Assembly: GCA_043812955.1 (NCBI GenBank)
Contig: JBDRLN010000061.1
Span: 7,231 to 71,230 of the forward strand
Length of the DNA stretch: 64,000 nucleotides
Source: Candidatus Omnitrophota bacterium
GTDB taxonomy: Bacteria; Omnitrophota; Gorgyraeia; Gygaellales; Profunditerraquicolaceae
Direction: 5' to 3'
Made by a program: the position numbers and the translations under genes. Under the pieces are notes generated by a model. That model had not been told where the DNA came from. It saw only the letters and a program-made list of their open reading frames with translations, and made no database searches. Below are positions 12,836 to 38,320 of the stretch, piece after piece (positions within the stretch are counted from its first letter, which is position 1; the number at the start of each line of letters is the position of its first letter).

Positions 12836-12853
12836 TTTATTTCCTCCTTATAT

Positions 12854-12920
12854 CGGTTTTCGGTTTACGGTTTTCAGTTTACGGTATTGGCCGCTAACCG
12901 ATAACCGCTAACCGATAACC
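12854..12920. repeat. Family-D element, copy 1: tandem CGGTTTACGG-type units followed by complementary CCGATAACCG-type units
   Basis: cggttttcggtttacggttttcagtttacgg ... ccgctaaccgataaccgctaaccgataacc. Left and right halves are imperfect reverse complements. It sits just upstream of the rpsM SD. Confidence 0.75.
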
Positions 12921-12924
12921 TTAG

Positions 12925-13038
12925 CTATCCTTGTCTTTGTTTGTGTTTAGGATTAGAACATATAACCCTAACAATACCTCTACGCTTAATAATCTTACAC
13001 TTATCGCATATCTTCCTGATTGATGCTTTTACTTTCAC
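12925..13038 (-). CDS. rpmJ: Ribosomal protein L36 (GTG start)
   Basis: Not in the ORF track (37 aa). Translates to [43 protein letters not shown] lies upstream of the GTG. Confidence 0.85.
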
Positions 13039-13085
13039 TTGAGTTTTCTCTCCATTCTTTACTATAATCTATACCTCTACCTATT

Positions 13086-13304
13086 TTATTTTACTCTAAA
13101 CGTAATCCTCCCCCGGCCTAAATCATAAGGAGAAAGTTCAAGTTTTACTTTATCTCCCGGTAATATCCTTATAAAATTCATTCTCATTTTTCCGGATACA
13201 TGCGCGGTAACTATATGCCCGTTTTCTAATTCTACCTTAAACACCGCGTTGGGTAACGCCTCTACAACCTTACCCTCAGTTTCTATTAACTCTTCCTTAC
13301 CCAT
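13086..13304 (-). CDS. infA: Translation initiation factor IF-1
   Basis: IF-1 homology from [41 protein letters not shown]... The track's 12-aa extension lies in a perfect palindrome, ATGCGTCTACGACGCAT. Confidence 0.8.
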
Positions 13305-13417
13305 ACTCTCCTCGAACACAATTATGCGTCGTAGACGCATTCAGTGAGATGCCGCTTGCGGCGCGAGCACTATTATGCATCGTAAAACGCATCTAACGAG
13401 ATCCCGCCGTAGCGGGA
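13305..13417 (-). other. GC-rich multi-hairpin leader between map and infA
   Basis: Four consecutive small palindromes: ATGCGTCGTAGACGCAT, GCCGCttgCGGCG, ATGCATCG/CGCATC and CCCGCcgtaGCGGG. The surrounding genome is AT-rich. Confidence 0.5.
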
Positions 13418-14164
13418 CTATAAACAGGTTAAAATTTCAGCTTCTTTTTCAGTAACTGCTACCGTATGCTCGAAATGCGCGGAAGGCATTCCATCAACTG
13501 CAACTGCTGTCCACCCGTCGCTCAAAACCCGGCAATCCAATTTGCCCATATTCACCATTGGCTCAATCGCTAAAACCATCCCGGGTTTTAAAATATCTCC
13601 CCGGTTAGGCTGGCCAAAATTAGGTATTTCCGGTTCTTCGTGAAGCTGCCTGCCTATGCCATGGCCGACAAACTGCCTGACTATTGAAAATCCGTTCTTT
13701 TCCACATATTGCTGAATAGCATAAGATATATCCGAAAGATTATTATTTGTCCTAGCCTGTTTTATGCCGAAAATTAAAGATTTTCTGGTTACATCTATGA
13801 GCTTTTTTGCCTGAGAGCTAATTTTACCTACTCCTACCGTAACCGCCATATCTGAGAAATAACCTTTATACTTTATGCCTACATCTAGGCTTACGATATC
13901 GCCATCTTTTATTTGCCTGTCTTTAGGGATACCGTGAACAATTTCTTCGTTTATTGATATACAAATATCTTCCGGATAACCCCGGTAACCTTTAAACGCT
14001 GAAGCTACCCCTTGTGCTTCTATATACCTGCCGGCTAAATCATTGATCTGTCTTGTGGTTATCCCCGGCTTTACGCTCTCTCGCAATCTATTAACTATCC
14101 CCGCTATTATCCTGCCTGCCTCGCGCATGGCTTGCAAATCTTGAACGGATTTTATCGGGATCAT
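13418..14164 (-). CDS. map: Methionine aminopeptidase type I
   Basis: 248 aa, MetAP-I fold with the metal-ligand D/D/H/E/E pattern. Confidence 0.9.
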   Translation of the reverse strand: MIPIKSVQDLQAMREAGRIIAGIVNRLRESVKPGITTRQINDLAGRYIEAQGVASAFKGYRGYPEDICISINEEIVHGIPKDRQIKDGDIVSLDVGIKYKGYFSDMAVTVGVGKISSQAKKLIDVTRKSLIFGIKQARTNNNLSDISYAIQQYVEKNGFSIVRQFVGHGIGRQLHEEPEIPNFGQPNRGDILKPGMVLAIEPMVNMGKLDCRVLSDGWTAVAVDGMPSAHFEHTVAVTEKEAEILTCL

Positions 14165-14169
14165 TGCTA

Positions 14170-14811
14170 TTATCTTATAACCTTGAAGATCTCATTTAAG
14201 ACCGGCTCTGCCTCAGCATCAGCCTTAATCTTAATTAATCTATCCGTGATGCTATAATAATCAATAAGACAAGTCACCTCCTGGCGATAAACCTCTAAGC
14301 GTTTCTTGATAGTCTCTTCTTTATCATCGCTTCTTTGATAGAGCTCGCCCCCGCAATGGTCGCAAACCATACTTTTTTTGGGAGGCATATTCTTAACGTG
14401 AAAATTAGCTGAGCAAAACCTACAGACCAGCCTTCCGGTAATACGCTGGATTATTACCGGTTCACTAGCATCCAAGTAAATAACTTTATTGATGCTGCTT
14501 CTCTTATCCTCCAACACCTCGTCCAGCCTTTTAGCCTGAGTAAGATTACGAGGATATCCGTCTAATATAAACCCTTTTTCGATATCCGGCTGATCCAATC
14601 TATCAATCAACATTTGAGTAACCAACTCATCCGGTACCAGCGCCCCCTTATTCATAAAATCTTTGGCTTGCGTACCTAAGGAAGTATTATTCGCCACATT
14701 CTGCCTTAATAGGTCTCCGGTAGAGATATGGGGCGATTTAATTTTTTCAGCGACTCTTTTTGCCTGTGTCCCCTTGCCCGCCCCCGGAGGCCCCAGCATG
14801 ATAATATTCAT
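14170..14811 (-). CDS. adk: Adenylate kinase (Zn-finger lid type)
   Basis: MNIIMLGPPGAGKGTQ P-loop. Lid motifs CRFC...CDHCGG. Confidence 0.9.
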   Translation of the reverse strand: MNIIMLGPPGAGKGTQAKRVAEKIKSPHISTGDLLRQNVANNTSLGTQAKDFMNKGALVPDELVTQMLIDRLDQPDIEKGFILDGYPRNLTQAKRLDEVLEDKRSSINKVIYLDASEPVIIQRITGRLVCRFCSANFHVKNMPPKKSMVCDHCGGELYQRSDDKEETIKKRLEVYRQEVTCLIDYYSITDRLIKIKADAEAEPVLNEIFKVIR

Positions 14812-14857
14812 ATATATTAATTGTTTGATTTAAATCTTCAATCTACAATCTGCACTG

Positions 14858-16204
14858 CTATCTTCTACCCTTGATTCTAGCGCCCTTAATAAAACCTTCA
14901 TAGTTGTGCATAACTAAGTGTGATTCAATCTGCTTTACCGTATCCAGCATTACCCCTACCACAATTAATACACTGGTTCCTCCGGCAAAAGAAGCAACTA
15001 AATATGGCACCTTTAGCCAAGCCATAATAAAATCCGGCAGGATCGCTATGATTGCTATAAAAATAGCACCGGCTAAGGTAATTCGGGTCATTACAAAATC
15101 CAGGTATTCCGAGGTTGGATTACCCGGCCGGATGCCCGGGATAAACCCCCCGTATTTTTTCATATTCTCGGAAATATCTATCGGATTAAAGACAATCGCG
15201 GTATAAAAATAACAGAAAAAAATAATTAAAAGCGAAAAAACTACAGTATATAGCAAATGACCCCTAACTAAATTCTGGGCCCACATCTGAAATGCCGGAT
15301 TAGGTATAAATGACGCCAAGGTTGCCGGAAAAAGTATTATTGACTGGGCAAAAATAATGGCGATTACTCCTGAAGTATCTACTTTTAAAGGAATATAAGT
15401 GGATTGACCGCCGTAAATCTTTCTGCCTACCACGCGGCGGGCATATTGAACCGGTATTTTTCTCTGGCCTTGAGTAATCATAATGACCGAGAAAACTACC
15501 GCGCATAATAAAACTGCCATCACCAGAATAGTTAAAGGCTGGATCTGCCTGCGGGCGGGTGAAAAAGGAGAAATTAAAACCCATAACTGAGCGATTGCCG
15601 CCGGGATACGTGAGATTATGCCGGCAGTAATTACTAATGATATGCCGTTACCAATACCTCTCTCCTGTATCTGCTCGCCTAACCACATGATAAAAATAGT
15701 GCCGGTGGTTAAAGTAAATACCGTCAATATCCGAAACCCGATCCCTGGCTGCATCACTATTTTTAATCCTTCAAACCGAGCCGGATTCTCCAACCACATA
15801 GCAATAAAAAAAGACTGAATCAACGCCAGTACCACTGTGCCGCAACGGGTAAACTGGTTTATCTTTTCATAACCAGCTTTGCCTTCTTTGGCAATTTTTT
15901 CCAATTGAGGAATAACTGCCGTCAAAAGCTGCATAATGATTGAAGCTGAAATATAAGGCATGATCCCTAAAGCAAAAATAGTCAGCCTCTCCATAGCGCC
16001 GCCGGAGAACATATTCATTATGCCAAAGAGCGTACCACCCTGGGTCTTAGCTATACGGTTAAAGAATTCACCCAGAGCCACCCCATCAATTCCGGGGGTA
16101 GGAACATAACAACCAACGCGGTAAACCGCGATCAAGATTCCGGTAATAATCAGCCTGCGCTTTAAATCCGGTATTTTAAAAGAATTGACTAACGCGCTAA
16201 GCAT
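14858..16204 (-). CDS. secY: Preprotein translocase SecY
   Basis: 448 aa, ten predicted TM segments. It sits in the spc-operon position. Confidence 0.9.
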   Translation of the reverse strand: MLSALVNSFKIPDLKRRLIITGILIAVYRVGCYVPTPGIDGVALGEFFNRIAKTQGGTLFGIMNMFSGGAMERLTIFALGIMPYISASIIMQLLTAVIPQLEKIAKEGKAGYEKINQFTRCGTVVLALIQSFFIAMWLENPARFEGLKIVMQPGIGFRILTVFTLTTGTIFIMWLGEQIQERGIGNGISLVITAGIISRIPAAIAQLWVLISPFSPARRQIQPLTILVMAVLLCAVVFSVIMITQGQRKIPVQYARRVVGRKIYGGQSTYIPLKVDTSGVIAIIFAQSIILFPATLASFIPNPAFQMWAQNLVRGHLLYTVVFSLLIIFFCYFYTAIVFNPIDISENMKKYGGFIPGIRPGNPTSEYLDFVMTRITLAGAIFIAIIAILPDFIMAWLKVPYLVASFAGGTSVLIVVGVMLDTVKQIESHLVMHNYEGFIKGARIKGRR

Positions 16205-16467
16205 TAATAACCTCTGGTATAATCTTCAGGTATAAATCTTAGGGATTATACCTGATTACTGAGATTAATAAAGATTACTGCGATTAAACCATTAATCGCC
16301 TTATTAGACAACTTTGTTACTAAAGTTTAGTAATAACCCTATCGGTTATAGAGTCTCTATTTTTAATCTCTGTAATCTCACTTTTCCCGCTAGTCGCGGG
16401 ATCCCGCCAGATAAGAGATTATTGAGCGGGATAATCATTGTAATCAGACATCCTTACTTCTTTCTCA
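16205..16467 (-). repeat. Family-C structured spacer (263 nt) between rplO and secY
   Basis: It shares its whole architecture with the rpsL-rpsG spacer at 29797-29961 (8-bp GACATCCT...AGGATGTC hairpin, then AGATTACAGAGAT, then an ~85-nt block). A 100-nt insert with overlapping GC palindromes is unique to this copy. Confidence 0.8.
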
Positions 16468-16980
16468 TTATAGGATGTCTATTTTACCGCCTGTATTTTT
16501 TATCTTCTCCTGAGCCTTTTTAGAAAAGGCATGGGCATAAATTATCTTCGCTGCCTTAAGCTCGCCATTGCCCAGTATCTTTACAGGCAAAGATTTACTT
16601 TTGATAAAGCCTTTTTCCAGCATTAACGCCGGATTGATCATATCTTCTTTGACCTTGGTTAAAACCTCCAGATTAACTACCTGATATACTTTCGGGGATC
16701 TGCTATGGAACCCGCGTTTGGGCATCTTACGGATAAGTGGAGACTGGCCTCCTTCGAATCCCAGATAAGTACCAGGGCCTGAACGCGAAGTCGCGCCTTT
16801 ACTTCCCCGGGTTGAAGTCTTTCCATGCCCCGAGCCTGCTCCCCGGCCTAAAAGCTTTCTCTTCTTATGGGAACCATGAGGCGCTTTTAGGTTATGCAGC
16901 CCGATTTTTTTCAGATCCACATTTGTTTTTTGTTTTATTTCAGGTTGTTGAACCGCTATTGTTCTTTTAGTCTTGAGCAT
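16468..16980 (-). CDS. rplO: Ribosomal protein L15
   Basis: L15 core GRGAGSGHGKTSTRGSKG. The ATG follows the rpsE stop directly (aagggaaaaaaaTAAATG). A ~20-aa N-terminal extension makes the start uncertain. Confidence 0.8.
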   Translation of the reverse strand: MLKTKRTIAVQQPEIKQKTNVDLKKIGLHNLKAPHGSHKKRKLLGRGAGSGHGKTSTRGSKGATSRSGPGTYLGFEGGQSPLIRKMPKRGFHSRSPKVYQVVNLEVLTKVKEDMINPALMLEKGFIKSKSLPVKILGNGELKAAKIIYAHAFSKKAQEKIKNTGGKIDIL

Positions 16981-17439
16981 TTATTTTTTTCCCTTTAAAT
17001 CTCCTAAAGCTACCATAGTAGCCTTGATTACGTTAATAGGATTATTAGATTTTAAAGATTTAGTCAGGATATCCTTGATTCCACAAGCCTCGCATACTGC
17101 CCTGACCGGGCCGCAGGCGATTACTCCTGTTCCTTCGGAAGCCGGCTTTAAAAGAACCAAGGCCCCGCCATACTTACCCAGAACTTCGTGAGGGATACTT
17201 GAGTTTTCCACTCCAATCTTAACTAAATCTTTTTTAGCCCGGCCCAGCCCTTTACGTATGGCATCGGCAACCTCGTTTGCCTTACCTAAAGCAAAGCCCA
17301 CCCGGCCGTTCCTATCCCCGACAACCACCAGGGCGCTGAAAGACATATTCTTCCCGCCCTTAGTTACCTTGGTAACCCTGTTGATCGAAACTATCTTCTC
17401 GCTTAACTCTGATTGCTGTTGAATATTCATTTCGCGCAT
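16981..17439 (-). CDS. rpsE: Ribosomal protein S5
   Basis: 152 aa, S5 dsRBD and C-terminal domain. Confidence 0.9.
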
Positions 17440-17802
17440 TTAAAACTCCAATCCTGCTTTTCTTAAGGAATCGGCAAAAGCCTTGACCCTTCCGTGATAT
17501 AAATAACCAGCCCGGTCAAAAACAATTTTTTTTATCCCCTTTTCAACTGCCCGCCTGGCAAACACTTCCCCGAAAAACTCCGCGGCCTTAATGTTTCCCG
17601 GAGCGGGAAATTTTGCCTTTATTTCTTTATCCAGAGTCGATAAAGAGAATACCGTATTATTTGATGTATCATCGACCAACTGGGCAAATAAATTCTTCAA
17701 ACCCCGGTTTAGCACTAAACGAGGGCGTTCGCTATTGCCTTTTATACGCACGCGAATTCGCTTATGCCTTCCTATTTGTTTTATCAATTTTTTATTTTTC
17801 AT
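17440..17802 (-). CDS. rplR: Ribosomal protein L18
   Basis: 120 aa, ...FDRAGYLYHGRVKAFADSLRKAGLEF. Confidence 0.9.
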   Translation of the reverse strand: MKNKKLIKQIGRHKRIRVRIKGNSERPRLVLNRGLKNLFAQLVDDTSNNTVFSLSTLDKEIKAKFPAPGNIKAAEFFGEVFARRAVEKGIKKIVFDRAGYLYHGRVKAFADSLRKAGLEF

Positions 17803-17803
17803 A

Positions 17804-18352
17804 TTACTTTCCGCCAGATGCCTGGGCCTTTCCTACTTTTTTCTTTACGTATTCTCCCAAATAACGCACGCCTTTGCCCTTATAGGGTTCAGGCGGGTAT
17901 ACCGAACGTATCTCAGCAGCCAGCTCGCCGACTTTTTCCTTGTCAATCCCCCAAATCACAATCTGAGTTAGCTTAGGGGCCTCTAACTTTATCCCCTCAG
18001 GTATATTAAAAATTACCGGATGAGAAAATCCCAAATTCATAGTCAGGGTATTCCCCTGAACTACGGCTTTAAAACCCACACCGTTTATCTCCAGCTCCTT
18101 GACATAGCCTTCAGTCACACCCTTAAGCATGTTCCCAACCAGAGCCCTGACTAAGCCCTGCTGGGCCTTATCCAGTTTTGTATTCCCCGCGCGGGTAACG
18201 AAAACCTGATTATCCTTGACTTCCAGGCCAATCCTATCGCTAAAGGTCCGGGCCAATTTACCTTTTGGGCCTTCAATAGAAATAAAACTCCCTTTTATCT
18301 CTACCTTAGTATCTTTAGGTAGGCTTACTGGCTTTCTTCCGATTCTTGACAT
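17804..18352 (-). CDS. rplF: Ribosomal protein L6
   Basis: 182 aa, MSRIGRKPVSLPKDTKVEIKG... Confidence 0.9.
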   Translation of the reverse strand: MSRIGRKPVSLPKDTKVEIKGSFISIEGPKGKLARTFSDRIGLEVKDNQVFVTRAGNTKLDKAQQGLVRALVGNMLKGVTEGYVKELEINGVGFKAVVQGNTLTMNLGFSHPVIFNIPEGIKLEAPKLTQIVIWGIDKEKVGELAAEIRSVYPPEPYKGKGVRYLGEYVKKKVGKAQASGGK

Positions 18353-18386
18353 GAAGCTTACTCCTTTACCTTTTTATTGAACACTA

Positions 18387-18417
18387 CACCCCGTAGGTGG
18401 AGTCCACCTACGGGGTG
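18387..18417. repeat. Family-B hairpin, copy 2 (CACCCCGTAGGTGG-agt-CCACCTACGGGGTG)
   Basis: Perfect 14-bp stem between rpsH and rplF. It differs from copy 1 by a compensatory T:A to G:C change at the loop-closing pair. Confidence 0.85.
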
Positions 18418-18426
18418 GAAATGGTA

Positions 18427-18822
18427 TTACCAGATATACCCAATGACCTCGCCGCCGGCCCTTTGTTCCCGGGCTTCCTTATCCGTCAAAATACCTTTAG
18501 ATGTCGAAATAATCGCCAAACCTCTGCCCCGCAAAACATACGGAATTTTATCATGGGTAACATATTTACGCAACCCCGGCCTGGATACGCGTTTTATACC
18601 GCTGATTACGCATTTCTTACCGCTGTATTTTAGATAGACCCTTAAAGAACCCTGTTTTTTATCCTCGATTAATTTAAAATTGTCTATGTATTCTTCTCTC
18701 TTTAATATCTCCAGAATACATTTAACAACCTTACAAGCAGGAATATCCAAATTCTCTTTTTTAGCCATCATCGCGTTTCTTATGATAGTAAAAGCATCAG
18801 CTATAGAATCTGTCCTAGACAT
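18427..18822 (-). CDS. rpsH: Ribosomal protein S8
   Basis: 131 aa, [17 protein letters not shown]... Confidence 0.9.
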
Positions 18823-18848
18823 TTATCTTATTTCTCCTTTAGTTTTAC

Positions 18849-19034
18849 TTACCAACTGGATTTCTTGATGCCAGGGATCAAACCCTGCCAGGCTAATTCC
18901 CTGAAACATATCCGGCAGAGCGCAAATCTCCTTAAGTACCCGCCTGAGCGGCCGCAGATGCGGCAACGGTTATATTCCCGGGTAGAAAACTTCTTTTTTC
19001 CCTTCCATCTGTTTATCTGCGATGTCTTAGCCAT
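18849..19034 (-). CDS. rpsN: Ribosomal protein S14 type Z (zinc-binding, 61 aa)
   Basis: [20 protein letters not shown] Zn ribbon. Confidence 0.9.
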
Positions 19035-19112
19035 ATCTTTAAATCATTCTCCTTATTGTTCCTTGCCTTTTCCCGACCCTGACTTTGAATAGTCGGGATC
19101 CCGCTTAATTTT

Positions 19113-19667
19113 TTATTGATCCTTGCGGGAAAAAGGCATTCCAAATAATCTCAAGAATTCTCTGGCCTCTTCTTCGGTCCTGGCATTTTTAATTACAAAG
19201 GTTATATCCATTCCCTGGACCCGGGAAATCCGATCATAATCTATTTCCGGAAAAATACCCTGTTCCGAAAGCCCCAGGGTATAATTACCCGCTTTATCAA
19301 AAGACCTGCTTGGCACCCCCCGGAAATCCCGGATACGCGGAAGAGCTACATTTATCAGCCTATCCATAAATTCATACATCATTGTCTTCCTTAAAGTAAC
19401 TTTACAGCCTATAGGTTGCCCATCCCTAATCTTAAAATTAGCAATAGCCTTCTTGGCCCGGAGCATAATCGGCTTTTGCCCGGTAATAGTGGCTAATTCG
19501 TCCATCGCCTTCTCTAATATTTTAATATCCCCGAGCGCCTCGCCTACGCCCATATTTACCACAATCTTCTCAATCTTGGGGCACGCGTTCTTATTTTTAA
19601 ACTTAAAGGTCTCCATCATCTTCGGAATTATTTCATTGCGATACTTTTCTAGCAATCTCGGCGTCAT
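19113..19667 (-). CDS. rplE: Ribosomal protein L5
   Basis: 184 aa, L5 family. AAGGAGAA lies upstream. Confidence 0.9.
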
Positions 19668-19681
19668 AATATAAGTCCTTA

Positions 19682-19993
19682 TTATATGGTTTCTTTACAA
19701 TTTTTACAAAATCTTATCTTGGTCTTATCTTCTAGGAACTTAAAACCTACGCGGGCCGCCCGACTGCAACCTTTGCAGAAATACATAACATTAGCTATAT
19801 TTAACGGCCTCTCTATAGAAACAATCCCCCCCTGTTGATTGGTCTGAGTCTTACGCATTGCCTTTTTGGCCAGGTTTATGCCCTCAACAATAACCCGGCC
19901 TTCGCCAGCCAATACGCTTAATACCTTGCCTTTTTTGCCTTTGTCCTTGCCTTTAACTACCTGAACAATATCGCCTTTTTTAATCTTTAACAT
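19682..19993 (-). CDS. rplX: Ribosomal protein L24
   Basis: 103 aa, [24 protein letters not shown] (KOW). Confidence 0.9.
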
Positions 19994-20147
19994 GTCTTTT
20001 CCTTATATAGTTATTGCTGAAAAACCCAGCAATAACTTTATTTTGGAGATTTTTAAAAAGATTACAGAGATTTATCCGAGGATGTTTAATCTTGTAATCT
20101 GTATTTTAATCGCTGAAATCAAGTTAACACTGCTTTTTCAGTGTTAA
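19994..20147 (-). repeat. Structured rplN-rplX spacer: twin 10-bp hairpins (GTTAACACTG/CAGTGTTAAC and GTTATTGCTG/CAGCAATAAC) flanking family-C-like GATTACAG motifs
   Basis: Seen directly. The first hairpin follows the rplN stop and is followed by UUGAUUU. The second ends 16 nt before the rplX ATG. Confidence 0.7.
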
Positions 20148-20516
20148 CTATATGACTTCCGGGGCCAGGGAAATAATCTTAGTAAAATTCTTCTCGCGCA
20201 ATTCTTTGGCTACCGGGCCAAACACCCTTGTCCCCCTGGGATTCAACTGGGCGTCAATAATCACAATAGCATTACGGTCAAATCGTAGTATCGAACCATC
20301 AGCGCGCCGAATTGCCTCTTTAGTTCTGACTACTACCGCTTTAGCCACCTCTCCCTTTTTAACCACCGCGTCAGGAGATGATTCCTTAACACTGACATTA
20401 ATAATATCGCCGACCACGGCATTCATTGCGTTCTTTTTTCCCAATACTCCTATAAGGGAAGCCCTTTTTGCTCCGGTATTATCCGCTACGTCTAAAATAC
20501 TGCGCAATTGAATCAT
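20148..20516 (-). CDS. rplN: Ribosomal protein L14
   Basis: 122 aa, [17 protein letters not shown]... Confidence 0.9.
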
Positions 20517-20794
20517 TTTACCTCATCCTTTAATTCAACATTGGGTATCTTGAATTTTTTCAAGATCTCCAGGACCCGGAAACGTTTATCTTTAGATATA
20601 GGCCTGGTCTCTTCGATCTTAACCGTATCGCCTACCTTAGCCATATTATGCTCATCATGGGCCTTAAATTTATTAAACCGTTTCATGATCTTGCCGTACT
20701 TGGGATGCTTACTAAGATGCATAATCTTCACTATAACCGTTTTCATCATTTTGTCGCTGATAACCGTGCCTGTAAATTCTTTGCGCTTACCCAT
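20513..20794 (-). CDS. rpsQ: Ribosomal protein S17
   Basis: 93 aa, S17 OB fold, overlaps rplN by 4 nt. Confidence 0.9.
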
Positions 20795-20828
20795 TTATTT
20801 TCTCTTTCTTTCTTTTGAATAATCCGTA

Positions 20829-21014
20829 TTATTTCTTTTCGCTTAAAATTGTTTTTATCCTGACAATATCCCTTTTAATTAATGAGAACCTGTGCGGTTT
20901 TTCTACCTGGCCGCCGTAACGCTGTAGGTTCATCTTATACAAATCCTCTTTAAGGGTTTTTTCTTTATTTATTAATTCTTCTCTGGATAGATTACGCAGC
21001 TCTTGTATCTTCAC
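20829..21014 (-). CDS. rpmC: Ribosomal protein L29 (GTG start)
   Basis: MKIQELRNLSREEL... The start codon GTG is at rc 21012-21014, embedded in the family-E hairpin arm. Confidence 0.85.
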   Translation of the reverse strand: MKIQELRNLSREELINKEKTLKEDLYKMNLQRYGGQVEKPHRFSLIKRDIVRIKTILSEKK

Positions 21015-21110
21015 CCCGCACCTTCCTTTTTTTCATAATTCTAAAACAGTTTGCCTTAAGGAATCTAATCTTTTGGAAGGTGCGGGGTTCATCCAGCACC
21101 TTCCTACTTA
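21014..21110 (-). repeat. Family-E element, copy 1: 13-bp GC hairpin (CCCCGCACCTTCC / GGAAGGTGCGGGG) plus a third CACCTTCC copy
   Basis: Plus 21014-21026 is the reverse complement of 21075-21087, and the motif recurs at 21097-21104. The mRNA 3' arm contains the rpmC SD and the first base of its GUG. Confidence 0.8.
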
Positions 21111-21518
21111 TTATTTATGCGCCCTGGTTACAAATTTAGTTTTAAATGGTAATTTATAAGCTATTAACCTGAAACACCTGCGGGCATACTCTTCCGGAAT
21201 ACCGCTTAACTCAAATAGTATTCTGCCTCTTTTAATAACACATACCCAATGATCAATATCGCCTTTGCCTTTACCCATACGTACTTCTGCCGGTTTTTTG
21301 GTTATAGATTTATCCGGAAAAACCCTAATCCATAGCCTCCCGCCTTTATGTAATTGCCTGGTCAGAACTACCCGACAGGCCTCAATCGTATTGTTCTTAA
21401 GCCAGCCGTTAACTAAAACCTTTAATCCAAACTCACCAAATGCCAGCTCCGCACCCCTGGTGGCTATTCCCCGGCGCTGTCCTTTTTGCAACTTCCTATA
21501 TTTTACTCTTTTGGGCAT
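21111..21518 (-). CDS. rplP: Ribosomal protein L16
   Basis: L16 homology from [17 protein letters not shown]. The track start at 21527 (MAL...) is also possible. Confidence 0.85.
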
Positions 21519-21556
21519 TAAAGCCATATCAATCTCGCTTTTGGTTTGTTTTTATT

Positions 21557-29796: not shown

Positions 29797-29961
29797 TTAT
29801 TCTCTTTCCTGGTATAATCATCAGGTATAAATTTTGGGGATTATACCTGATTACTGAGATTAATAAAGATTGCAGCGATTAAACTTCTGTCTTTTATCTC
29901 TGTAATCTGCCTTTTAATCACTGTAATCAGACATCCTCATTACTTCTTATTACAGGATGTC
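29797..29961 (-). repeat. Family-C structured spacer (165 nt) between rpsL and rpsG
   Basis: Homologous to 16205-16467. The last ~85 nt before the rpsG ATG are ~93% identical to the last ~85 nt before the secY ATG. Confidence 0.8.
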
Positions 29962-30339
29962 TTAGGCTGCCTTCGGCATTTTTGCCCCGTATTTTGAACG
30001 GGATTTTTTACGGCTGTTCACTCCTGCCGCGTCCAGGGTCCCTCTAACTATATGATACCTTACCCCGGGAAGATCCTTTACCCTGCCGCCCCTTACTAAG
30101 ACTATAGAATGTTCCTGCAGATTATGCCCTTCTCCTGGTATATACGCAGTTACCTCAATACCTGTAGTCAACCTGACCCTAGCGATCTTTCTTAAGGCAG
30201 AATTGGGCTTCTTAGGAGTCATAGTCTTGACCTGAATACAAACACCTCTGCGCTGCGGACAAGCTTTTAAGGCCATAGATTTGGATTTCTTAATCTTAGA
30301 TCTACGGCTGAACCTGATTAACTGGGAAATTGTAGGCAT
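29962..30339 (-). CDS. rpsL: Ribosomal protein S12
   Basis: 125 aa, ...[10 protein letters not shown]... Confidence 0.95.
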
Positions 30340-30344
30340 AACTT

Positions 30345-33300
30345 TTAATCCTTTTTGGTTTCTTTTGCGGCTACTTTCTCCTTAGTCTCTTTGGACAGCT
30401 TTACTACTTCTATATCTCTATGTATAGGATAGCCTGTGCCCGCAGGAATAAGATGGCCGACAATAATATTTTCTTTTAATCCGAAAAGTTCATCCCGTTT
30501 TCCGGAAGTTGCCGCGTCAGTAAGCATCCGGGTAGTCTCCTGAAAACTAGCGGCAGAAATAAAACTCTCAGTAGTTAATGAGGCCTTGGTTATGCCTAGC
30601 AATAGAGGAGTGGCCTGAGCAGGCTTTCCGCCTTTTTTAATAACCCTGGTATTTTCTTTCTGGAATCTCCACTTATCTACCTGCTGTAAAGCCAAAAACT
30701 CGGTATCGCCTGAATCTTCCACTCTAACCTTTTTCAACATCTGGCGAATGATCAATTCGATATGTTTATCATTTATATGCACGCCCTGGAGCCGGTAAAC
30801 CTCCTGGACTTCATTGACTAAATACTCCTGAAGAACCTTATCGCCGCAGACCCTTAAAATATCCTGTAAAACAACCGGTCCGTCTGTTAACTGCTGTCCG
30901 GCAGTAACCTTATCTCCCTTATAAACATCAGGGTGCTTGCCATGGGGAATAACATATTCTCTTTGCATTCCAGTGGGCGATTTAACCACGATAACCCGCT
31001 GGCCTTTCTTAGTCTCTCCAAATTCGACAAAACCGTCTATTTCACTGATAACCGCCGGATCCTTAGGCCTTCTGGCTTCAAACAATTCCGCGACCCTAGG
31101 CAAACCTCCGGTAATATCCCTGGTCTTTACGGTTAAACGGGGTATCTTAGCCAGAAGATCGCCGGCTTCAATGCCCTGGCCGTCCTTGACTAAGATGTGG
31201 GCGCCTATAGGAATTGGATAAATACCCATAACCTCTTTTTTATTGTCCAGGATAACGATCTGGGGATGATAATCTGCTTTATGCTCTACTACAACTTGTT
31301 CAATTGACTTAGTAACCGGATTAACTTCCTGGACCACCGATACATTTTCCTTTAGATCTTCGAATTTAACAATTCCCGATACTTCGGTAAGTATGGGCGC
31401 GGTATAAGGATCCCAGTGAACAAAAGAAATTCCTTTATTGATTTCTTCTGCGTCTTTAAAACCAATGAATGAGCCCTGAGGTATAAGATATCTTTCTAAT
31501 TCCCGGCCGTCTTTATCGTTAATACTGATTGAGCCGTTACGGTTTAAAACTACAAATTCTTTCTTTTTAGGAGCGGTTCTTAAGTTATGATATTTGATAA
31601 AACCTTTATTCCTGGAACCGATCAAAGATTGCTCAACACTGCGGGAGGCGGTGCCACCGATATGAAAAGTCCTTAAGGTCAGCTGGGTACCTGGCTCGCC
31701 AATGCTCTGGGCAGCTATTACGCCTACAGCCTCTCCTGGCTCAACCAACCTTCCAGTAGCTAAATTCCGTCCGTAGCACTTGATGCATACTCCCCGCTCA
31801 GATTCACAGGTGAGCACGCTGCGAATACGGATTTTCTCAATACCTAATTTATCGATCATATCCGCTTTTTCTTCAGTGATCTGATCGCCCTGTTCAACTA
31901 TAACTTCATCGGTAATAATATCCACTATATTATCCAGGGCTACCCTGCCGACAATACGGTCTTTTAAACTGACCACTAATTCATTGCCTTCGGTAATAGC
32001 CTGGACTGTAATCCCGTTTAAAGTGCCGCAATTATCTTCGGTAATAATTATCTCCTGACAAACATCAACCAGCCTGCGGGTTAGGTAACCAGCATCCGCG
32101 GTTTTAAGGGCTGTATCCGCCAGACCTTTTCTGGCGCCGTGAGTAGAGATAAAATATTCCAAAACCGTAAGCCCTTCCTTAAAATTCGCAGTAATCGGGT
32201 TTTCAATGATCTCACCTGACGGTTTAGCCATTAACCCTCTCATTCCGGCTAACTGCCTTACCTGCATCCGTGAGCCCCTGGCACCGCTATCAGCCATCAT
32301 AAATATAGGATTAAAAGGATCCATTTCTTTAAATAACATATCCGAAACCTTATCCGTCACATGGGTCCAGACATCAATAACCTTATTAAAACGCTCCCGG
32401 TCAGTAATAATGCCTTTGCGGTACTGGTCCTCGATCTTAGCGACGTCTACCCTGGCCTCTTTTAATACTTCTGGCTTAGCTTTAGGTATCACTAAATCAT
32501 CAATACCTATAGATATGCCTCCGATAGTGGCGATTTCAAAACCCAAATCCTTGATATCGTCAAGCAGCTGAATTGCCCTTTCGTGGCCGAACCGTTTATA
32601 ACATTCCGAAACTACTTCTCCTACGTTGCTCTTATTTAATTCCCGGTTTACAAAACCAAAATCCTCGGGTAGAATTTGATTAAATATAACCCTGCCTACA
32701 GTCGTATTTATGATCTGCCTTCCGGAATTAACTTTCTTCTCAGATAAGTCAAACACCGAATATACTCTCAATTTTATCTTAGTATTAAGCTCAACCTCTT
32801 TATCATTATTGGCCACGATAACTTCATCATTATTGGCAAATAGTTTATTTTCACCTTTTGCCCCCGGTTTTTCCTTAGATAGATAAGAAAGCCCTAAAAC
32901 AATATCCTGACTGGGCGTAACTACCGGCCGACCATGAGCAGGAGAAAAAACATTATTAACTGATAACATTAAAACTTTACATTCAGTCTGAGACTCTATA
33001 GACAAAGGCACATGTACCGCCATCTGGTCACCGTCAAAATCAGCGTTAAACCCGGCGCAGACTAAAGGATGGATCTTAATCGCTTTTCCTTCAATCAGAA
33101 CCGGCTGAAAGGCCTGCATACTTAAACGATGCAATGTTGGGGCGCGATTTAATAATACCGGGTGGTCTTTGATTACCTCATCCAGCATATCCCAGACCTC
33201 GATTTTTCCGTGACCGACCATCCTGCGGGCGCCCTTAATAGTATGAACAAAACCTTTTTCTTTTAATTTCTTAATGATAAACGGCTCAAATAATTCCAAG

Positions 33301-34388
33301 GCCATCTGCTTTGGCAGGCCGCATTCATGCAGTTTTAGCTCGGGGCCAACCACGATTACCGAACGGCCGGAATAATCAACCCGCTTTCCTAAGAGGTTCT
33401 GACGGAAACGACCCTGTTTTCCTTTAAGCATATCCGAAAGCGATTTTAAAGGACGGTTATTAGAGCCCACTACCGCCCGGCCATGCCTTCCGTTATCTAA
33501 AAGCGCGTCCACCGCCTCCTGCAGCATACGCTTCTCGTTGCGGACGATTATATCGGGCGCGTTAAGCTCAATTAATTTCTTTAAGCGGTTATTCCGGTTG
33601 ATTACCCTGCGGTATAGATCATTTAAATCAGAAGTAGCAAACCTTCCGCCCTCTAAAGGGACCAATGGCCTTAAATCCGGAGGGATAACCGGCAGGACAT
33701 CCAGGATCATCCATTCCGGTTTGTTAGTGGATTTACGAAAATCCTCAACGATCTTCAAATTCTTTAAAGACTTGCGGTTATTCAGGACTTCTTTGGATTT
33801 TTCCAAGTCCTTGCGTAGCTTCCTACAGGCAACATCAAGATCAACTTCTTTTAGCAGGTCCTGCACTGCTTCGGCTCCCATCTTAGCCTTGAATTTAGAG
33901 CCGTATTTATCAAATGCCTCCTGGTATTTATCTTCGCTAAGCAATTCTCTCTTCTTTAAAGGAGTAGTCCCAGGGTCAATAACCACATACTCTTCGTAAT
34001 ATATCACTTTTTCCAGTTCTCTTAAGTTTATATCCAATAGCGCGGAAAGCCTGCTGGGGACAACTTTAAAAAACCAGATATGCATTACCGCAGCGGCTAA
34101 CTCAATATGGCCCATCCGCTCTCTTCTTATTGAAGAATGATCTACTATAACACCGCAGCGGTCGCAGGTTATCCCTTTGAATTTTATTCCTTTATATTTA
34201 CCGCAGTTACATTCCCAGTCCCGAACAGGCCCAAAAATCTTCTCGCAGAAAAGGCCGTCCTTTTCCGGTTTTAAAGTACGGTAGTTTACGGTTTCCGCTT
34301 TCCGCACTTCTCCCTTAGACCAGGAACGGACAACTGCAGGCGAAGCTAATTTAATGGTTATACTGTCGAATGCTAGATTTTCGCGCAT
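30345..34388 (-). CDS. rpoC: DNA-directed RNA polymerase beta' subunit
   Basis: 1347 aa. NADFDGDQM catalytic motif and Zn-binding CNCGKY...C.RCG. Confidence 0.95.
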
Positions 34389-37300
34389 TATTTGGCTGCT
34401 TTCTCTAAACGGACATCTAATCCCAAACCCTGTAATTCTTTAACTAAAACATTAAAAGATTCAGGCGTGCCGTGAGTTAAATGCTGCTCTCCTTTAACAA
34501 TAGCCTCGTAAATCTTAGTCCTTCCGTTTACGTCATCGCTTTTTACCGTAAGCATCTCCTGCAAGGTAAATGCCGCGCCGTAAGCTTCCAAGGCCCAAAC
34601 TTCCATTTCTCCCAACCTCTGCCCGCCAAACTGGGCCTTGCCGCCTAAAGGCTGCTGGGTTACCAAAGAATACGGCCCTATAGAACGGGCATGTATTTTT
34701 TCATCAACCAAGTGGATCAATTTCATCATATAGATATAACCAACGGTGATCCTCTGGCTAAAAGGCTCCCCCGTATAGCCGTCGAAAAGCGTTGTTTTTC
34801 CGTCTTCAGGAAGACCGGCTTTACTCAACATCTCTTTAACTTCTATTTCTTTAGCTCCGTCAAATACCGGAGTCATAATACTGATCCCTAAAGCCTTGGC
34901 AGCCCAACCTAAATGAGTCTCTAAAATCTGGCCTACATTCATACGTGAAGGCACGCCTAAGGGATTTAAGATCATTTCTACAGGGGTCCCATCAGGCAGA
35001 TAGGGCATACTGTCTTCGGGTAATATCTTGGCTACCACACCCTTGTTTCCGTGACGGCCGGATAATTTATCTCCTACAGCGAGTTTTCTTTTAGTCGCAA
35101 CATAGGCTACAACCCTTTTTAACACTCCCGGGGGCAATTCATCTCCGCGTCTTACCTTATCAATCTCCTGCTGCTGCTCGCTGATTAACTCGCGGATCTG
35201 CTCATCATAAGAATTGGAAACTATTTTTGCTTCTTCATTATCGCTGTCTTCAAAATCTATCTTCTCTGCCTTAGCTTTATCAATGCCTAAAAGATGAGCT
35301 AAACGACTGATCTTCTCGACCTGTAAAAATTCTATCTCCTGTTTATAATAAGCCTTCAGTTCCCGGACCTTGACCAATTCCTTGTTTTTTTCTTCTTTGG
35401 ATTTCCTGCCCCGGTCTTTACGCTGGAATACATGCACATCTACTACTACGCCTTCCACTCCCGGAGGGACTATTAATGAAGTATCCCGGACATCTGAAGC
35501 CTTCTCTCCGAATATAGCCCTGAGCAACCTTTCTTCCGGAGATAATTCGGATTCAGTCTTGGGAGTTACTTTACCTACCAGTATATCTCCAGGCCCTACT
35601 TCCGCTCCGATACGAACTATCCCGTTCTGGTCTAAGTTATTTAAAGAATCCTCACTGACATTAGGAATATCCCGGGTTATCTCTTCATTACCCAGCCGGG
35701 TCTCAATAGCCTCGATCTCAAATTCTTTGACATGAATGGAGGTGAATACATCTTCCTTTACCAATTTCTCGCTAATAACAATAGCATCTTCGAAATTAAA
35801 ACCTCTCCAGGGCATAAAAGCCACAAAAACATTTTTACCTAAAGCCAGTTCGGCGTTTTTGGTACACATACCGTCAGCAATAACCTGGCCCTTTTCCACG
35901 TGTTCGCCCAGTTTAACTATCGGCCTTTGATTTAAACAGGTATCGGCATTGGTGCGCAAGAATTTCGATAACAGATAGGTTCTCTTGCCTACTGTTATCG
36001 CGGCGGCGTCAACTCTAGTAACTTTACCTGATTCCTCGGCAATAACTACAGTGCCTGAATCATAAGCCACCTTTTCTTCCATGCCTGTACCCACAACTGG
36101 AGACTCATTGATCATCAGGGGTACGCCCTGTCTCTGCATGTTTGATCCCATGAGGGCCCGGTTAGCATCATCATGCTCCAAAAAAGGAATTAATGAAGCC
36201 GCAACTGAAACCAGTTGTTTTGGGGAAACATCCATATATTCAACCTGTTTAGGGCTAACTTTGGGAAAATCGCCTTTAAAACGGCAGGATATCTCTTTTT
36301 CAATAAAATAACCCTCGCCATCCAAAGGCACATTAGCCTGGGCAATTATCTTTACTTCCTCAATATCGGCAGTTAGATATTCGATCTTTCTAGTAACCCG
36401 ACCTTCTTCGGTTTTACGATAAGGCGTCTCTAATAAACCTAATGCATTAACCCGGGCATAAGTACTTAAAGAAGCAATCAAGCCGATATTAGGGCCTTCA
36501 GGGGTTTCTATAGGGCAAACCCTTCCGTAATGCGAAGGATGGATATCTCTTACTTCAAAACCAGCCCGTTCGCGGGATAATCCACCGGGGCCTAAAGCGC
36601 TTAACCTGCGTTTATGAGTAATTTCAGCTAACGGATTAACCTGATCCATAAATTGCGACAACTGACTGCGGCCAAAAAAATCATGAAGCTGAGTAGAGAA
36701 TAGCTTGGAATTTATTAGGGTATGCACGTTTAAAGCGTTTAAGTCGCTTAATACGCCGATCTTTTCTCTTATTGAACGCTCTATCCTGCTCATTCCTATC
36801 CTTACCTGATTCTGAACTAATTCACCCACAGTTTTAATCCTACGGTTGCCTAAATGGTCAATATCATCTATCTTTCCAACGCCTTCTTTAAGCTTAATTA
36901 GGTATTCAATAACCCTAATCACGGTAGCAGAATCTAAAATCCGCTTATCCAAAGAAACTTCCATACCCAGTTTACGATTAAGCACAAACCTGCCTGCCCT
37001 TTCCAGATCATAACGGTTAGGATCAAAGAACAAGCGATAAAATAAGCCTTCAGCTGCTTCCTTAGTAACCGGATCAGTCGGCCGCATTTTGCGGTAAAAA
37101 TCTAAATAGGCCTCCTCTTTATTTTTGGTATAATCTTTTTTCAGGGTATTTCGGATTTCGGGGTAATCTTTGGAAAACGCCGATATGATTTCATTATCGG
37201 TAGAATAACCTAATATCCTTAAGATCTGGGTTGCGGGAAAATTCCTACGCCTGTCTACATAAGCTAATATTGTTTCCGAAAGATCATATTTAAACTCCAG

Positions 37301-37804
37301 CCAGGCGCCGCGATAGGGTATGATCCTGCCTTGGTAAACGCTTTTTCCTGTAGGGTGCTCTTCTTCTTCAAACGAAACTCCGGGCGAACGCTGCAATTGA
37401 CTTACTACCACTCGTTCGTCTCCATTAATAATAAAACTTCCAGTATCAGTCATAAGGGGGAGCTCCCCGAAATAAGCATCCTGTTCTTTAATCTCCTGTG
37501 GAGTAGTTAAGCGGAATTTTACTTTAAGCGGAGCGGCATAGGTAAGTGATCGTTTCTTACATTCTCCGACAATATATTTAGGTTTGCCCAGAGTATAATT
37601 GACGAATTCCAAACGGACAGTCCGGTCAACATTCTCAATCGGAAAGGTATCTTCAAAAACCTCCTGCAACCCCTGGGATTTTAAATCCTTGGGCGTTGCA
37701 TTTACCTGAAGAAATTCCCGATAAGATTCAGTCTGGATGTCCAGAAAATTAGGTAGTTCGTATACCTCTTTAAATTTCGCGAAATTTTTACGCTTATTAG
37801 CCAT
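34388..37804 (-). CDS. rpoB: DNA-directed RNA polymerase beta subunit
   Basis: 1138 aa, conserved beta regions. Confidence 0.95.
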
Positions 37805-37835
37805 TTTCTATACTATTATATAGGTAAGGAATCTG

Positions 37836-38225
37836 TTATTTTAATTCTACGGTCGCGCCCGCAGCTTCCAACTTCTTCTTCATATCTTCAGCTTCTTCTT
37901 TGGTAACGCCATCTTTAACCGGCTTCGGGGCAGCATCAACTAAGTCTTTAGCTTCCTTTAATCCTAAACTGGTCATCGCCCTCACCTCTTTAATAACGGC
38001 GATCTTACTTGCGCCAGCGCTGGTCAAGACTACTGTAAATGCAGTTTTTTCTTCCGCAGCTGGAGCTGCTCCACCTGCTGATCCTTGAGCACCTGCCATA
38101 GGAGCTGCCATCATCGGCATATTAGCACAAACCCCAAACTTTTCTTCCAGGGCCTTGACCAAATCTGCCAATTCCAGGACTGTCATCTCTTCGATTGATT
38201 TAATTAATTCCTCTTGCTTTGCCAT
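37836..38225 (-). CDS. rplL: Ribosomal protein L7/L12
   Basis: 129 aa. Ala-rich hinge; AAGGAGG lies upstream. Confidence 0.9.
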
Positions 38226-38241
38226 CTTTACTCCTCCTTAT

Positions 38242-38310
38242 TTACGGTTAGCGGTGTTCGGTTTACGGTTATCGGTGTTCGGTCTAATCGCTCACCCGAT
38301 ACCCGCTAAC
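38242..38310. repeat. Family-D element, copy 3
   Basis: tacggttagcggtgttcggtttacggttatcggtgttcgg ... cacccgatacccgctaacc. It sits between rplJ and rplL. Confidence 0.75.
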
Positions 38311-38320
38311 CTAAAACCTA

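Follow-up and report, generated by a model that had tools for sequence, protein, structure and literature searches.

Organization of the ribosomal super-operon and its spacers

The stretch of DNA analyzed here (the window) comprises 64,000 nucleotides of contig JBDRLN010000061.1 (positions 7,231 to 71,230) of the Candidatus Omnitrophota assembly GCA_043812955.1, and carries a ribosomal super-operon in which many genes are separated by long, structured spacers. Every real gene of this 64-kb window is located on the minus strand, plus-strand open reading frames (ORFs) being spurious, and the window ORFs correspond to housekeeping genes. According to ORF mapping, the super-operon spans 40495..9690 on the minus strand and covers nusG-rplKAJL-rpoBC-rpsLG-fusA-tuf-S10-spc-alpha-rplQ, with the gene order nusG-rplK-rplA-rplJ-rplL-rpoB-rpoC-rpsL-rpsG-fusA-tuf-rpsJ ... 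rplO-secY-adk-map-infA-rpmJ-rpsM-rpsK-rpsD-rpoA-rplQ. It is accompanied by groES/groEL (1-2000), leu and tricarboxylic acid cycle (leu/TCA)-type genes (2161-9684) and a his/trp/alaS block (51374-60895). Ribosomal-protein (r-protein) operons are among the most compact and conserved bacterial loci and serve as phylogenetic markers.

The start codons of rplB, infA and rpsD were corrected before junction lengths were counted. Spacers of at least 60 nt were found at 14 of the 40 super-operon junctions, and these include all ten junctions where the initial annotation had placed long spacers between r-protein genes, which range between 74 and 263 nt:

12836-12924, rpmJ/rpsM spacer, 89 nt
16205-16467, rplO/secY spacer, 263 nt
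18353-18426, rpsH/rplF spacer, 74 nt
19994-20147, rplN/rplX spacer, 154 nt
21015-21110, rplP/rpmC spacer, 96 nt
22590-22729, rpsS/rplV spacer, 140 nt
23858-23939, rplW/rplB spacer, 82 nt with the corrected rplB start
29233-29325, rpsG/fusA spacer, 93 nt
29797-29961, rpsL/rpsG spacer, 165 nt
38226-38320, rplJ/rplL spacer, 95 nt

The spacers had also been described as hairpin-forming members of recurring families, and this was borne out. Their fold z-scores in relation to shuffles range between -2.5 and -9.4 inside the ribosomal cluster and reach -11.3 outside it. BLAST between spacers at E<1e-5 gave 13 pairs versus none in 30 shuffles, and 11 spacers were self-inverted versus 0-1 in the 30 shuffles, so the families are not chance matches. 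The proposal that the elements are GC-richer than the genome around them did not hold: spacer GC content ranges between 0.29 and 0.53, with a window mean of about 0.42, and about half of the spacers are AT-richer.

Repeat families inside and outside the ribosomal cluster

The elements have 57-265 nt, are non-coding and do not encode a transposase of their own. They were grouped in families A to H. Inside the ribosomal cluster, the following elements were delimited (SD, Shine-Dalgarno sequence; MFE, minimum free energy; REP, repetitive extragenic palindrome; MITE, miniature inverted-repeat transposable element):

12847..12924, minus strand, C1, 78-nt hairpin with tandem-heptamer arms (GGTTAnC / nAAACCG), MFE -35.6, z -5.8; the rpmJ stop TAG lies on one side and the native rpsM SD GAGGAAATAAA (12836-12846) on the other
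13305..13417, minus strand, map/infA spacer, a CCCGC hairpin and then two ATGCG..CGCAT hairpin units, z -3.2
16216..16480, minus strand, D1, composite multi-hairpin element inside the last rplO codons, giving the new C-terminus IDIL and a stop
16385..16431, minus strand, G-type double hairpin nested within D1, TCCCGC..GCGGGA twice, centre GGGATCCC
18353..18426, minus strand, B2, REP-like GC-rich palindrome CACCCCGTAGGTG..CACCTACGGGGTG, core about 18385-18419, z -4.8
19035..19130, minus strand, G, double hairpin between rplE and rpsN, first arm TCCCGC within the last rplE codons
19994..20147, minus strand, rplN/rplX element, three hairpins, the middle one D-like (GATTACA.. arms), z -5.9; its 3' end is a new SD, AAGGA
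21012..21092, minus strand, H, MITE with 13-bp terminal inverted repeats between rplP and rpmC
22590..22729, minus strand, E1, long imperfect hairpin with TAGTAGGTAGG arms between rpsS and rplV
23858..23939, minus strand, C2, heptamer-arm hairpin occupying the rplW/rplB spacer; stop TAG (TAA at empty sites)
29233..29325, minus strand, F1, hairpin of about 73 nt between rpsG and fusA, inverted termini GCAGGGACGGTTCT..AGAACCGTCCC, MFE -41.8, z -9.4
29811..29961, minus strand, D2, family D copy right after the rpsL stop; native SD and spacer at 29797-29810
38226..38320, minus strand, C3, heptamer-arm hairpin and native SD in the rplJ/rplL spacer

Outside the cluster, these elements were found:

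2100..2160, minus strand, A1, hairpin with 21-bp stem (GGGGTCAGAATTATTTTTT..), leu/TCA-type junction
4407-4466 (A2) and 6130-6189 (A3), further family A copies at leu/TCA-type junctions; z of A1-A3 -4.5 to -11.3
5564..5619, minus strand, B1, REP-like family B palindrome, leuD-like/icd-like junction, z -6.1
52910..53034, minus strand, E2, family E copy, hisI/trpE, z -8.0
53365..53421, minus strand, E3, partial family E copy, hisF/hisI
55360..55454, minus strand, F2, family F copy, hisH/hisA, 84% to F1, MFE -48.7, z -6.9
58146..58225, minus strand, H remnant before hisD, with a decayed left repeat and an intact right repeat that adjoins the hisD GTG

Copies of a family located 11-26 kb apart in the window show 66-93% identity. 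Family C, with a 7-nt periodicity and CGGTTAn arrays, aligns at rpmJ/rpsM (12851-12921), rplW/rplB (23864-23934) and rplJ/rplL (38249-38319). In family D, 16205-16480 (rplO/secY) and 29797-29961 (rpsL/rpsG) show 93% identity over 76 nt, with about 165 nt alignable, and the rplN/rplX spacer is a partial match; D1 has AGA repeated at its two ends and corresponds to D2 with two further insertions nested in it. Family B (18384-18439 at rpsH/rplF and 5564-5619) has a 31-nt imperfectly palindromic core, CACCCCGTAGGTG-N5-CACCTACGGGGTG, within the REP-type range of 20-40 nt. Family E is shared by rpsS/rplV, hisI/trpE and hisF/hisI, family F by rpsG/fusA and hisH/hisA, and family H by rplP/rpmC (21015-21110) and the remnant before hisD. 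The three copies of family A all lie in the leu/TCA block, and the double hairpin TCCCGC..GCGGGA of family G is found at rplE/rpsN and nested in D1. Terminal inverted repeats are invariant over 13 bp in H, extending to about 25 bp; F has GCAGGGACGGTTCT / AGAACCGTCCCTGC, and A and C are whole-length hairpins. No clear terminal repeats were found on the composite element D.

BLAST of the window spacers placed families at his and trp junctions outside the ribosomal cluster; their recurrence before his genes had been noted in the initial annotation. The same or sister families also occupy leu/TCA and alaS junctions, and eight of the 11 non-ribosomal window spacers of at least 57 nt fold with z of -3.6 or below. 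The sharing of modules by ribosomal and histidine cistrons therefore stands as an observation, and a special link between the two does not: the leu/TCA, his and trp junctions equal or exceed the ribosomal ones in element density, because of which we give the ribosome-histidine link no functional meaning. Their co-occurrence reflects a genome-wide colonization of gene boundaries.

Family C heptamer arrays were also detected in 34 IMG/VR contigs, with about 1-2 expected by a rough estimate. Examples are L213:4829-4967, L229:2007-2129 and 13918-14040, and L218:6340-6520. Some of the viral arrays are inverted (AACCGAT)x3 ... (ATCGGTT)x3 pairs about 70-90 nt apart, and others are long tandem or inverted runs.

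Presence and absence of the elements in related genomes

The junctions were compared in 80 loci encoding SecY relatives (numbered with the prefix L), of which about 45 are from Omnitrophota and the remainder are outgroup. The SecY relatives likewise point to Candidatus Omnitrophota as the source of the window. Closer genomes were obtained via SecY and S7 homologues: GCA_018825985.1, which contains L081 and L206, and GCA_041643395.1, which contains L084. Mean r-protein identity to the window is 90% for L081/L206 and 95% for L084, and the proteins of these relatives are 90-97% identical.

Orthologous junctions of the Omnitrophota loci measure mostly -8 to +20 nt, and long spacers are found at differing junctions in each genome. 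The baseline has a median of 11 nt, with stop and start codons often overlapping. The initial statement that junctions of these operons usually measure 0-30 nt in bacteria was overstated, since at least 60 nt separate the genes in 25% of the analyzed junctions of 33 outgroup loci. Among long spacers, 49% have z < -3 in Omnitrophota versus 29% in the outgroup. The peculiarity of Omnitrophota is a very compact baseline broken by discrete, strongly structured inserts, as the lengths at individual junctions illustrate:

rplW/rplB, window 82 nt, L081 1 nt, L084 1 nt; L081 and L084 read TAA C ATG
rplO/secY, window 263 nt, L081 -8 nt, L084 -8 nt; most relatives also have the 8-nt overlap
rpmJ/rpsM, window 89 nt, L081 11 nt, L084 71 nt (a different heptamer family)
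rpsH/rplF, window 74 nt, L081 15 nt (empty), L084 95 nt (a different element)
map/infA, window 113 nt, L081 11 nt (empty), L084 98 nt (only the 3' half orthologous)
rpsS/rplV, window 140 nt, L081 229 nt, L084 88 nt (other family); most relatives 1 nt

E1 is orthologous and duplicated in L081 (88% identity), A1 has an orthologous copy in L081, and F1 one in L206. At rplN/rplX, most relatives overlap as TAATG, the D-like part is common to L081, and L084 has another family. Element G at rplE/rpsN is common to the window, L081 and L084 and absent in L001-L011, where the spacer has 2-16 nt; between two of the three copies both sides of the stem are changed (CCCGAC/GTCGGG versus CCCGCC/GGCGGG). L206 shows an unrelated element at rplJ/rplL and a different repeat, with CACGGAT units, at rpsL/rpsG. 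Furthermore, relatives have insertions of their own where the window is compact, at rplB/rpsS, rpmC/rpsQ, rplX/rplE, rplF/rplR and rpoA/rplQ. A search of the closest genomes showed that L081 shares families A, D and E with the window and that both L081 and L084 share G and H; families C and B were not found in the fetched loci of L081 and L084, outside of which family F lies. No window family matched in the 80 SecY loci except for a weak match of H, and the metagenome loci contained, of the window families, H together with a trace of E and D and no others. As orthologous junctions are usually compact (-8 to +15 nt) or differently filled in relatives, the elements are lineage-specific insertions. 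Turnover is fast, different families hit the same junction in sister genomes, and elements nest in one another.

Since the lineage of the window is uncultivated and the contig index gave no contig for its exact proteins (its L22 and an S7 100% identical to its own), errors of assembly or binning in a metagenome-assembled genome might be suspected behind the long spacers. Assembly artefacts are excluded because L081-L083, three independent assemblies of one lineage, have identical spacer lengths at every junction that each covers. In addition, orthologous E, F, A and G copies are present in independently assembled relatives and the reading frames are intact on both sides of each spacer, so that an artefactual origin deserves practically no credence.

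A further element, absent from the window, was shared across species: it was found in L001, L003, L005, L009, L017, L018, L019 and L036 (e.g., L003:8321-8373 and L009:13161-13211). It consists of a variable CCCGC..GCGGGA hairpin, TAAATTCGCGC, a co-varying stem nnAACTTAC..GTAAGTTnn and GCTCATTAA just before the SD/ATG; long forms have a second, similar hairpin at the left end. Eleven of 12 copies are in gene orientation, and three tandem copies occupy the rplO/secY junction of L003.

Insertion sites and survival of translation signals

Alignments of filled and empty sites confirmed that the elements adjoin a stop codon on one side and an SD or start codon on the other. At rpmJ/rpsM, the empty site of L081 reads TAG-GAGGAAATAAC-gtg and the filled site of the window TAG-78 nt-GAGGAAATAAA-gtg. 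Inserts between the stop codon and the native SD are also found at rpsH/rplF, and at rpsN/rpsH in L084; the B2 insert at rpsH/rplF is flanked by the direct repeat GGTAA, with one copy at the rpsH 3' end (with the rpsH stop) and the other just before the SD. Where genes overlap, the insert enters the last codons and brings a new tail and stop. Thus, D1 changes the end of rplO from ..GGKIEVINA-stop to ..GGKIDIL-stop, its AGA end repeat also restoring the secY SD, and G supplies an altered rplE end with a stop codon. In the rplB/rpsS junction of L084, about 20 nt containing stop and SD are duplicated on both sides of the insert. At empty rpsS/rplV sites the genes are 1 nt apart and the SD lies inside rpsS; after E1, no recognizable SD was found in the 20 nt before the rplV ATG (..CTACTATCTAATAATCAA-ATG).

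All three copies of family C follow TAG, the empty rplW/rplB sites have TAA, and C1 and C3 are flanked by TA..TA. These three copies weakly suggest that family C inserts after the TA of a TAA stop, the element starting with G. Candidate target duplications were listed per family as TGA(A/G) or TTGA for H, AGA for D1, GGTAA for B2 and TA for C (two of three copies).

In the predicted folds, hairpins span almost the whole insert, and the unpaired ends measure 0-24 nt (5') and 0-29 nt (3'), the 3' end holding the SD. In the RNA, the insert could loop out as a hairpin, so that the stop and the next start would stay close and translational coupling would be kept; if so, the positions of the elements would be explained by selection rather than by targeting alone. 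The elements would be retained in essential operons with high expression because no insertion lasts there unless it preserves the signals, either by lying between the stop and the native SD, by bringing its own stop, or by rebuilding SD and start.

Family H elements at start codons

The element of the rplP/rpmC junction reads ATGAA-CCCCGCACCTTCC ... GGAAGGTGCGGG-GTGAA, with the left repeat CCCCGCACCTTC at 21076-21087 and the right repeat GAAGGTGCGGGG at 21014-21025. Its left flank ATGAA (21088-21092) is the former start codon, which now opens a 19-codon leader ORF whose stop lies 20 nt short of the rpmC GTG. The SD is provided by the right repeat, whose last G makes up, with the following TG, the GTG start of rpmC (21012-21014).

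Metagenome contigs were scanned for both H termini (terminus sequence CCCCGCACCTTCT; the right repeat AGAAGGTGCGGGG gives the SD), and at least 120 contigs matched. Among the matches listed, to which the counts of this section refer, there are 126 physical H elements, about 13 of them GC-rich chance hits. At least 84 adjoin a GTG opening an ORF of at least 50 codons, and about 10 more adjoin ATG, TTG, a shifted GTG or the 37-codon rpmJ. The flanks are ATGAA..GTGAA in 62 cases, ATGAG..GTGAG in four and TTGA..TTGA in three; they co-vary on both sides and therefore represent a true 4-nt target duplication at ORF bases 2-5. The last G of the right repeat and the duplicated TG make the new GTG, with the repeat AGAAGGTG as SD 4 nt upstream. 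Where H is missing, the start codon is ATG, as in rplR of L002-L008 and L010-L011 and in rpmC of L084, where a 41-nt spacer of another repeat family fills the junction; rplR of L009 and rpmC of L011 have only a right-repeat remnant and start with GTG. An intact H is located at the orthologous hisD start in L165, and at least four copies lie within 16 kb of L001. Pairs of H termini 0.3-4 kb apart in the fetched loci were separate small copies only, with no transposase-sized unit enclosed. In viral contigs, the single H match was a GC-rich chance match in coding sequence and was discarded.

The 76 distinct genes downstream of H are functionally unrelated, all beginning with M-K/N/R, and include those of L29, L15, L5 and L18 as well as hisG, hisD, alaS, mdh, metG, radA and panC. 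Family H is not restricted to translation and amino-acid operons, a restriction that the initial annotation had considered. The leader ORF that starts at the old ATG begins MNPAPS.. and the lengths of H are phased in threes, 42 of 74 falling in the frame that leads to GTGA (p = 3e-5). In 31/74 the stop of the leader is precisely the TGA that overlaps the GTG, and in 76% it lies within 35 nt of the GTG. Conservation is confined to the 14-bp terminal-repeat stem, in which the SD and bases 1 and 2 of the start codon are paired; the interior drifts.

These features suggest a model in which H integrates at TGA(A/G) following the first base of the start codon, and the displaced SD-ATG drives a short leader ORF that is kept in frame to end in the TGA overlapping the new start. 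The insert would be bypassed by termination-reinitiation, while the stem can sequester the SD; translation of the leader would melt the repeat stem that otherwise sequesters SD and GTG. It is possible, at somewhat less than an even chance in our judgement, that the lineage carries MITEs specialized for gene boundaries, with H rebuilding SD and GTG with a coupled leader and the other families using matching tricks: a regenerated stop (TAA to TAG, C), a new stop (D and G) or the looping-out of the hairpin. If true, such traits would let parasitic DNA colonize even the ribosomal super-operon, which would be an undescribed class of adaptation for bacterial MITEs. Omnitrophota is, to our knowledge, a phylum with no genetic system, and the copies of H, over 100 in number, are natural variants of a stem predicted to sequester the SD and of its coupled leader ORF, on which termination-reinitiation could be tested directly.

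A different element was observed in the 116-nt rplP/rpmC spacer of L006, flanked by ATGA..ATGA at the rpmC start (taaataat-ATGACCCGTTCG...GTCGAAGG-atgaag). It suggests that insertion at start codons may not be unique to family H.

The frame constraint on the H leader also bears on the idea that the elements are mobile repeats co-opted as mRNA stabilizers, as RNase III/E processing sites or as coupling tuners of r-protein stoichiometry, roles of the kind shown for some REP, ERIC and Correia elements. The near-perfect stems of 20-33 bp in A and F would be plausible RNase III substrates, some insertions are kept across the three closest genomes, copies of F, E and A are shared, and the stem of G is changed on both sides. 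However, matching arm changes in a palindrome can come from arm-to-arm conversion without selection, the elements turn over rapidly among close relatives with different families at the same site, and the interiors of family H are not conserved. As a general explanation of the spacers, co-option appears unlikely, with perhaps one chance in a few; some older, shared copies (G, F, E and A) might by now contribute to mRNA stability, processing or coupling.

Regulatory signals and origin of the spacers

The initial annotation had considered the elements as possible cis-regulatory RNA modules, and conserved modules of this kind (r-protein autoregulatory sites or attenuators) could co-ordinate translation genes with amino-acid operons. 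The predicted hairpins are strongly structured, intercistronic and on the transcribed strand, and in E. coli the rpsL/rpsG junction and the region upstream of rpsM carry regulatory sites. G-U pairs are slightly more frequent on the sense strand (50 versus 31), a bias explicable by the G excess of that strand. With Rfam, only two tRNAs of the window, and no spacer family, passed the gathering threshold; at E<=5 on 12000-41500 there were chance-level matches only and no r-protein leader (L10, S10/L4, S4/alpha, S7 or S8). The terminator and promoter scan of the window showed no enrichment, with 26 terminator-like sites versus 19.3 +/- 4.5 in shuffles. No main element stem is followed by a T run on the sense strand, such runs following short sub-stems in four spacers only. 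The same sequences are found in unrelated operons, H precedes its 76 unrelated genes, and genomes whose proteins are 90-97% identical lack most of the elements, or have others instead, at the orthologous junctions. These presence/absence data already largely refute a conserved regulatory system, which we consider very improbable.

We regard it as highly probable that the spacers hold small MITE/REP-like mobile repeats, non-coding and palindromic, which belong to several unrelated families and insert repeatedly at intra-operon gene boundaries. In support of the MITE/REP-like alternative of the initial annotation, each family has more than one copy, the copies are palindromic and do not code for protein, a given junction is filled in some genomes and empty in others, and at least H combines terminal repeats with a 4-nt duplication. 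They are found in many kinds of operons, not only ribosomal and histidine ones. According to this interpretation, they are tolerated parasites that keep or rebuild the stop, ribosome-binding and start signals and do not form a shared regulatory system; their mobilization would presumably depend on transposases encoded elsewhere in the genome.

Several results weigh against this interpretation. Families A, B, C, D, E and F have only 2-3 copies each in the 64-kb window, and beyond these copies A-F were seen only sometimes, in one close relative. As the initial annotation had noted, there is no transposase among the window ORFs, and neither a transposase nor an autonomous parent element was found in the fetched loci. 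Sense and antisense folds were compared to tell constraint on the RNA from constraint on the DNA, with a weak outcome that G skew confounds. Furthermore, target duplications are not uniform, the gap-placement ambiguity being mostly 0-2 nt over 41 insertion events, and some junctions show boundary duplications of about 20 nt instead (rplB/rpsS in L084). Heptamer-unit arrays are also found as pure tandem repeats in relatives (L015), so some in-place growth may happen.

The last three points are also what would be seen if many spacers, especially the heptamer-armed ones, were the product of replication slippage and template switching (inverted duplication) at the site itself and not of transposition. 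The arms are built of 7-10-nt units, one unit forms a pure tandem array and, at another junction, a hairpin in L015, and two-unit seeds are present in L084. Against growth in place speak the copies that are 66-93% identical and 11-26 kb apart, the precise insertions with intact flanks, and H, which acts as a classical element with terminal repeats and target duplication; in addition, inverted AACCGAT arrays with three units per arm, about 70-90 nt apart, occur in viral contigs. We judge it improbable as the origin of many of the spacers, and growth of heptamer arrays in place probably contributes alongside the mobile repeats.

The content of long ribosomal junctions differs between genomes with about 95% identical proteins, an unusual target for repeats. 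Even essential operons with high expression are open to small mobile repeats, provided that translation signals are preserved. This has consequences for gene calling (start codons and C-termini), for marker-gene alignments and binning of Omnitrophota metagenome-assembled genomes, and for how "structured intergenic RNAs" of uncultivated phyla are interpreted.

Other features of the window

Two other spacers of the super-operon show further features. An element may have been lost from the rpmC/rpsQ spacer (20795-20828, 34 nt), leaving a scar: in the window, TACGGATTATTC, which is similar to the ACGCGGAT units occupying the 135-nt junction of L084, precedes a second copy of the rpmC 3' end, AAAGAAAGAGAAAATAA. 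The two genes have an 8-nt overlap in L081. The rpsD/rpoA spacer (11286-11367, 82 nt) is 94% conserved in L084, forms no more than a weak hairpin (z -1.2) and belongs to none of the repeat families, so that a true promoter or regulatory site within the operon may lie here instead of an inserted element. A D-like element of 152 nt occupies this junction in L081.

The L30 gene is absent from the super-operon, and L15 (rplO, 16468-16980), with an N-terminal extension of about 24 residues, starts directly after rpsE. L17 (rplQ, 9690-10274) has 194 amino acid residues and a C-terminal extension of about 80 residues past the Pfam domain. S11 (rpsK, 12006-12449) has a low-complexity N-terminal extension of about 35 residues, rich in Thr, Pro and Ala, with the Pfam S11 domain from residue 37. 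Outside the super-operon, a pilT-like ATPase gene (6194-7240) is located between genes for large and small aconitase-family (leuC/leuD-like) subunits, and a gene encoding a predicted peptidoglycan-binding protein of 147 residues (54182-54625) lies between hisA and hisF, with an 11-nt overlap with hisF.

Comparison with known repeat systems

Searches of the literature on Omnitrophota repeats, ribosomal-operon REPs, STRR and MITEs at stop codons gave no earlier description of these elements, and the H repeat sequence was not found in the searchable literature. The kind of element is known from Correia, ERIC, REP/BIME, MIRU, RPE and STRR; the families themselves, their density in the ribosomal super-operon and the start-codon-specific rebuilding of signals by H appear to be undescribed.

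Correia/NEMIS elements of Neisseria and ERIC/IRU elements of enterobacteria are similarly small (about 70-260 nt), non-coding and multi-copy, without a transposase of their own, and they have terminal inverted repeats or whole-length hairpins, lie in transcribed intergenic DNA and are present or absent among close relatives. Their sequences are unrelated to ours, and the window elements are located inside the S10-spc-alpha-str-L10 super-operon at 13 or more junctions. Furthermore, H targets the start codon, rebuilding SD and start, and duplicates TGA(A/G), whereas Correia elements duplicate TA.

Among REP/BIME/REPIN elements with RAYT, from Enterobacteria and Pseudomonas, family B, a GC-rich extragenic palindrome of 31 nt, finds a counterpart, and G resembles BIME in its paired short hairpins (TCCCGC..GCGGGA) placed side by side; both B and G follow stop codons within operons. 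The stems of the window elements are lineage-specific, C, D, E and F are much longer than REP, and no RAYT gene was found in the window. Rickettsia palindromic elements (RPE) are also palindromic mobile repeats that enter coding sequence and spare the gene, such as D1 in rplO and G in rplE; however, RPE are inserted in frame within ORFs and translated in the protein, and the window elements lie at the extreme ends of genes.

The STRR heptamers and small dispersed repeats of heterocystous cyanobacteria share tandem arms of 7-nt units, an intergenic location and nested small repeats with the window elements. The units of the window are different and form inverted hairpin arrays, and the host belongs to Omnitrophota; it is not a cyanobacterium, because rpoC is unsplit in the window.

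Finally, MIRU are located in intercistronic spacers of operons, as are the window elements, and H also has a small ORF in the orientation of the flanking gene, which begins at the former start codon. Often (31 of 74 leaders), although not in the window's own H, whose leader stops 20 nt before the GTG, this ORF overlaps the next start (GTGA), which would preserve coupling. MIRU is a tandem minisatellite without terminal inverted repeats, whereas H is single-copy and has inverted repeats, a target duplication and a stem predicted to sequester the SD.

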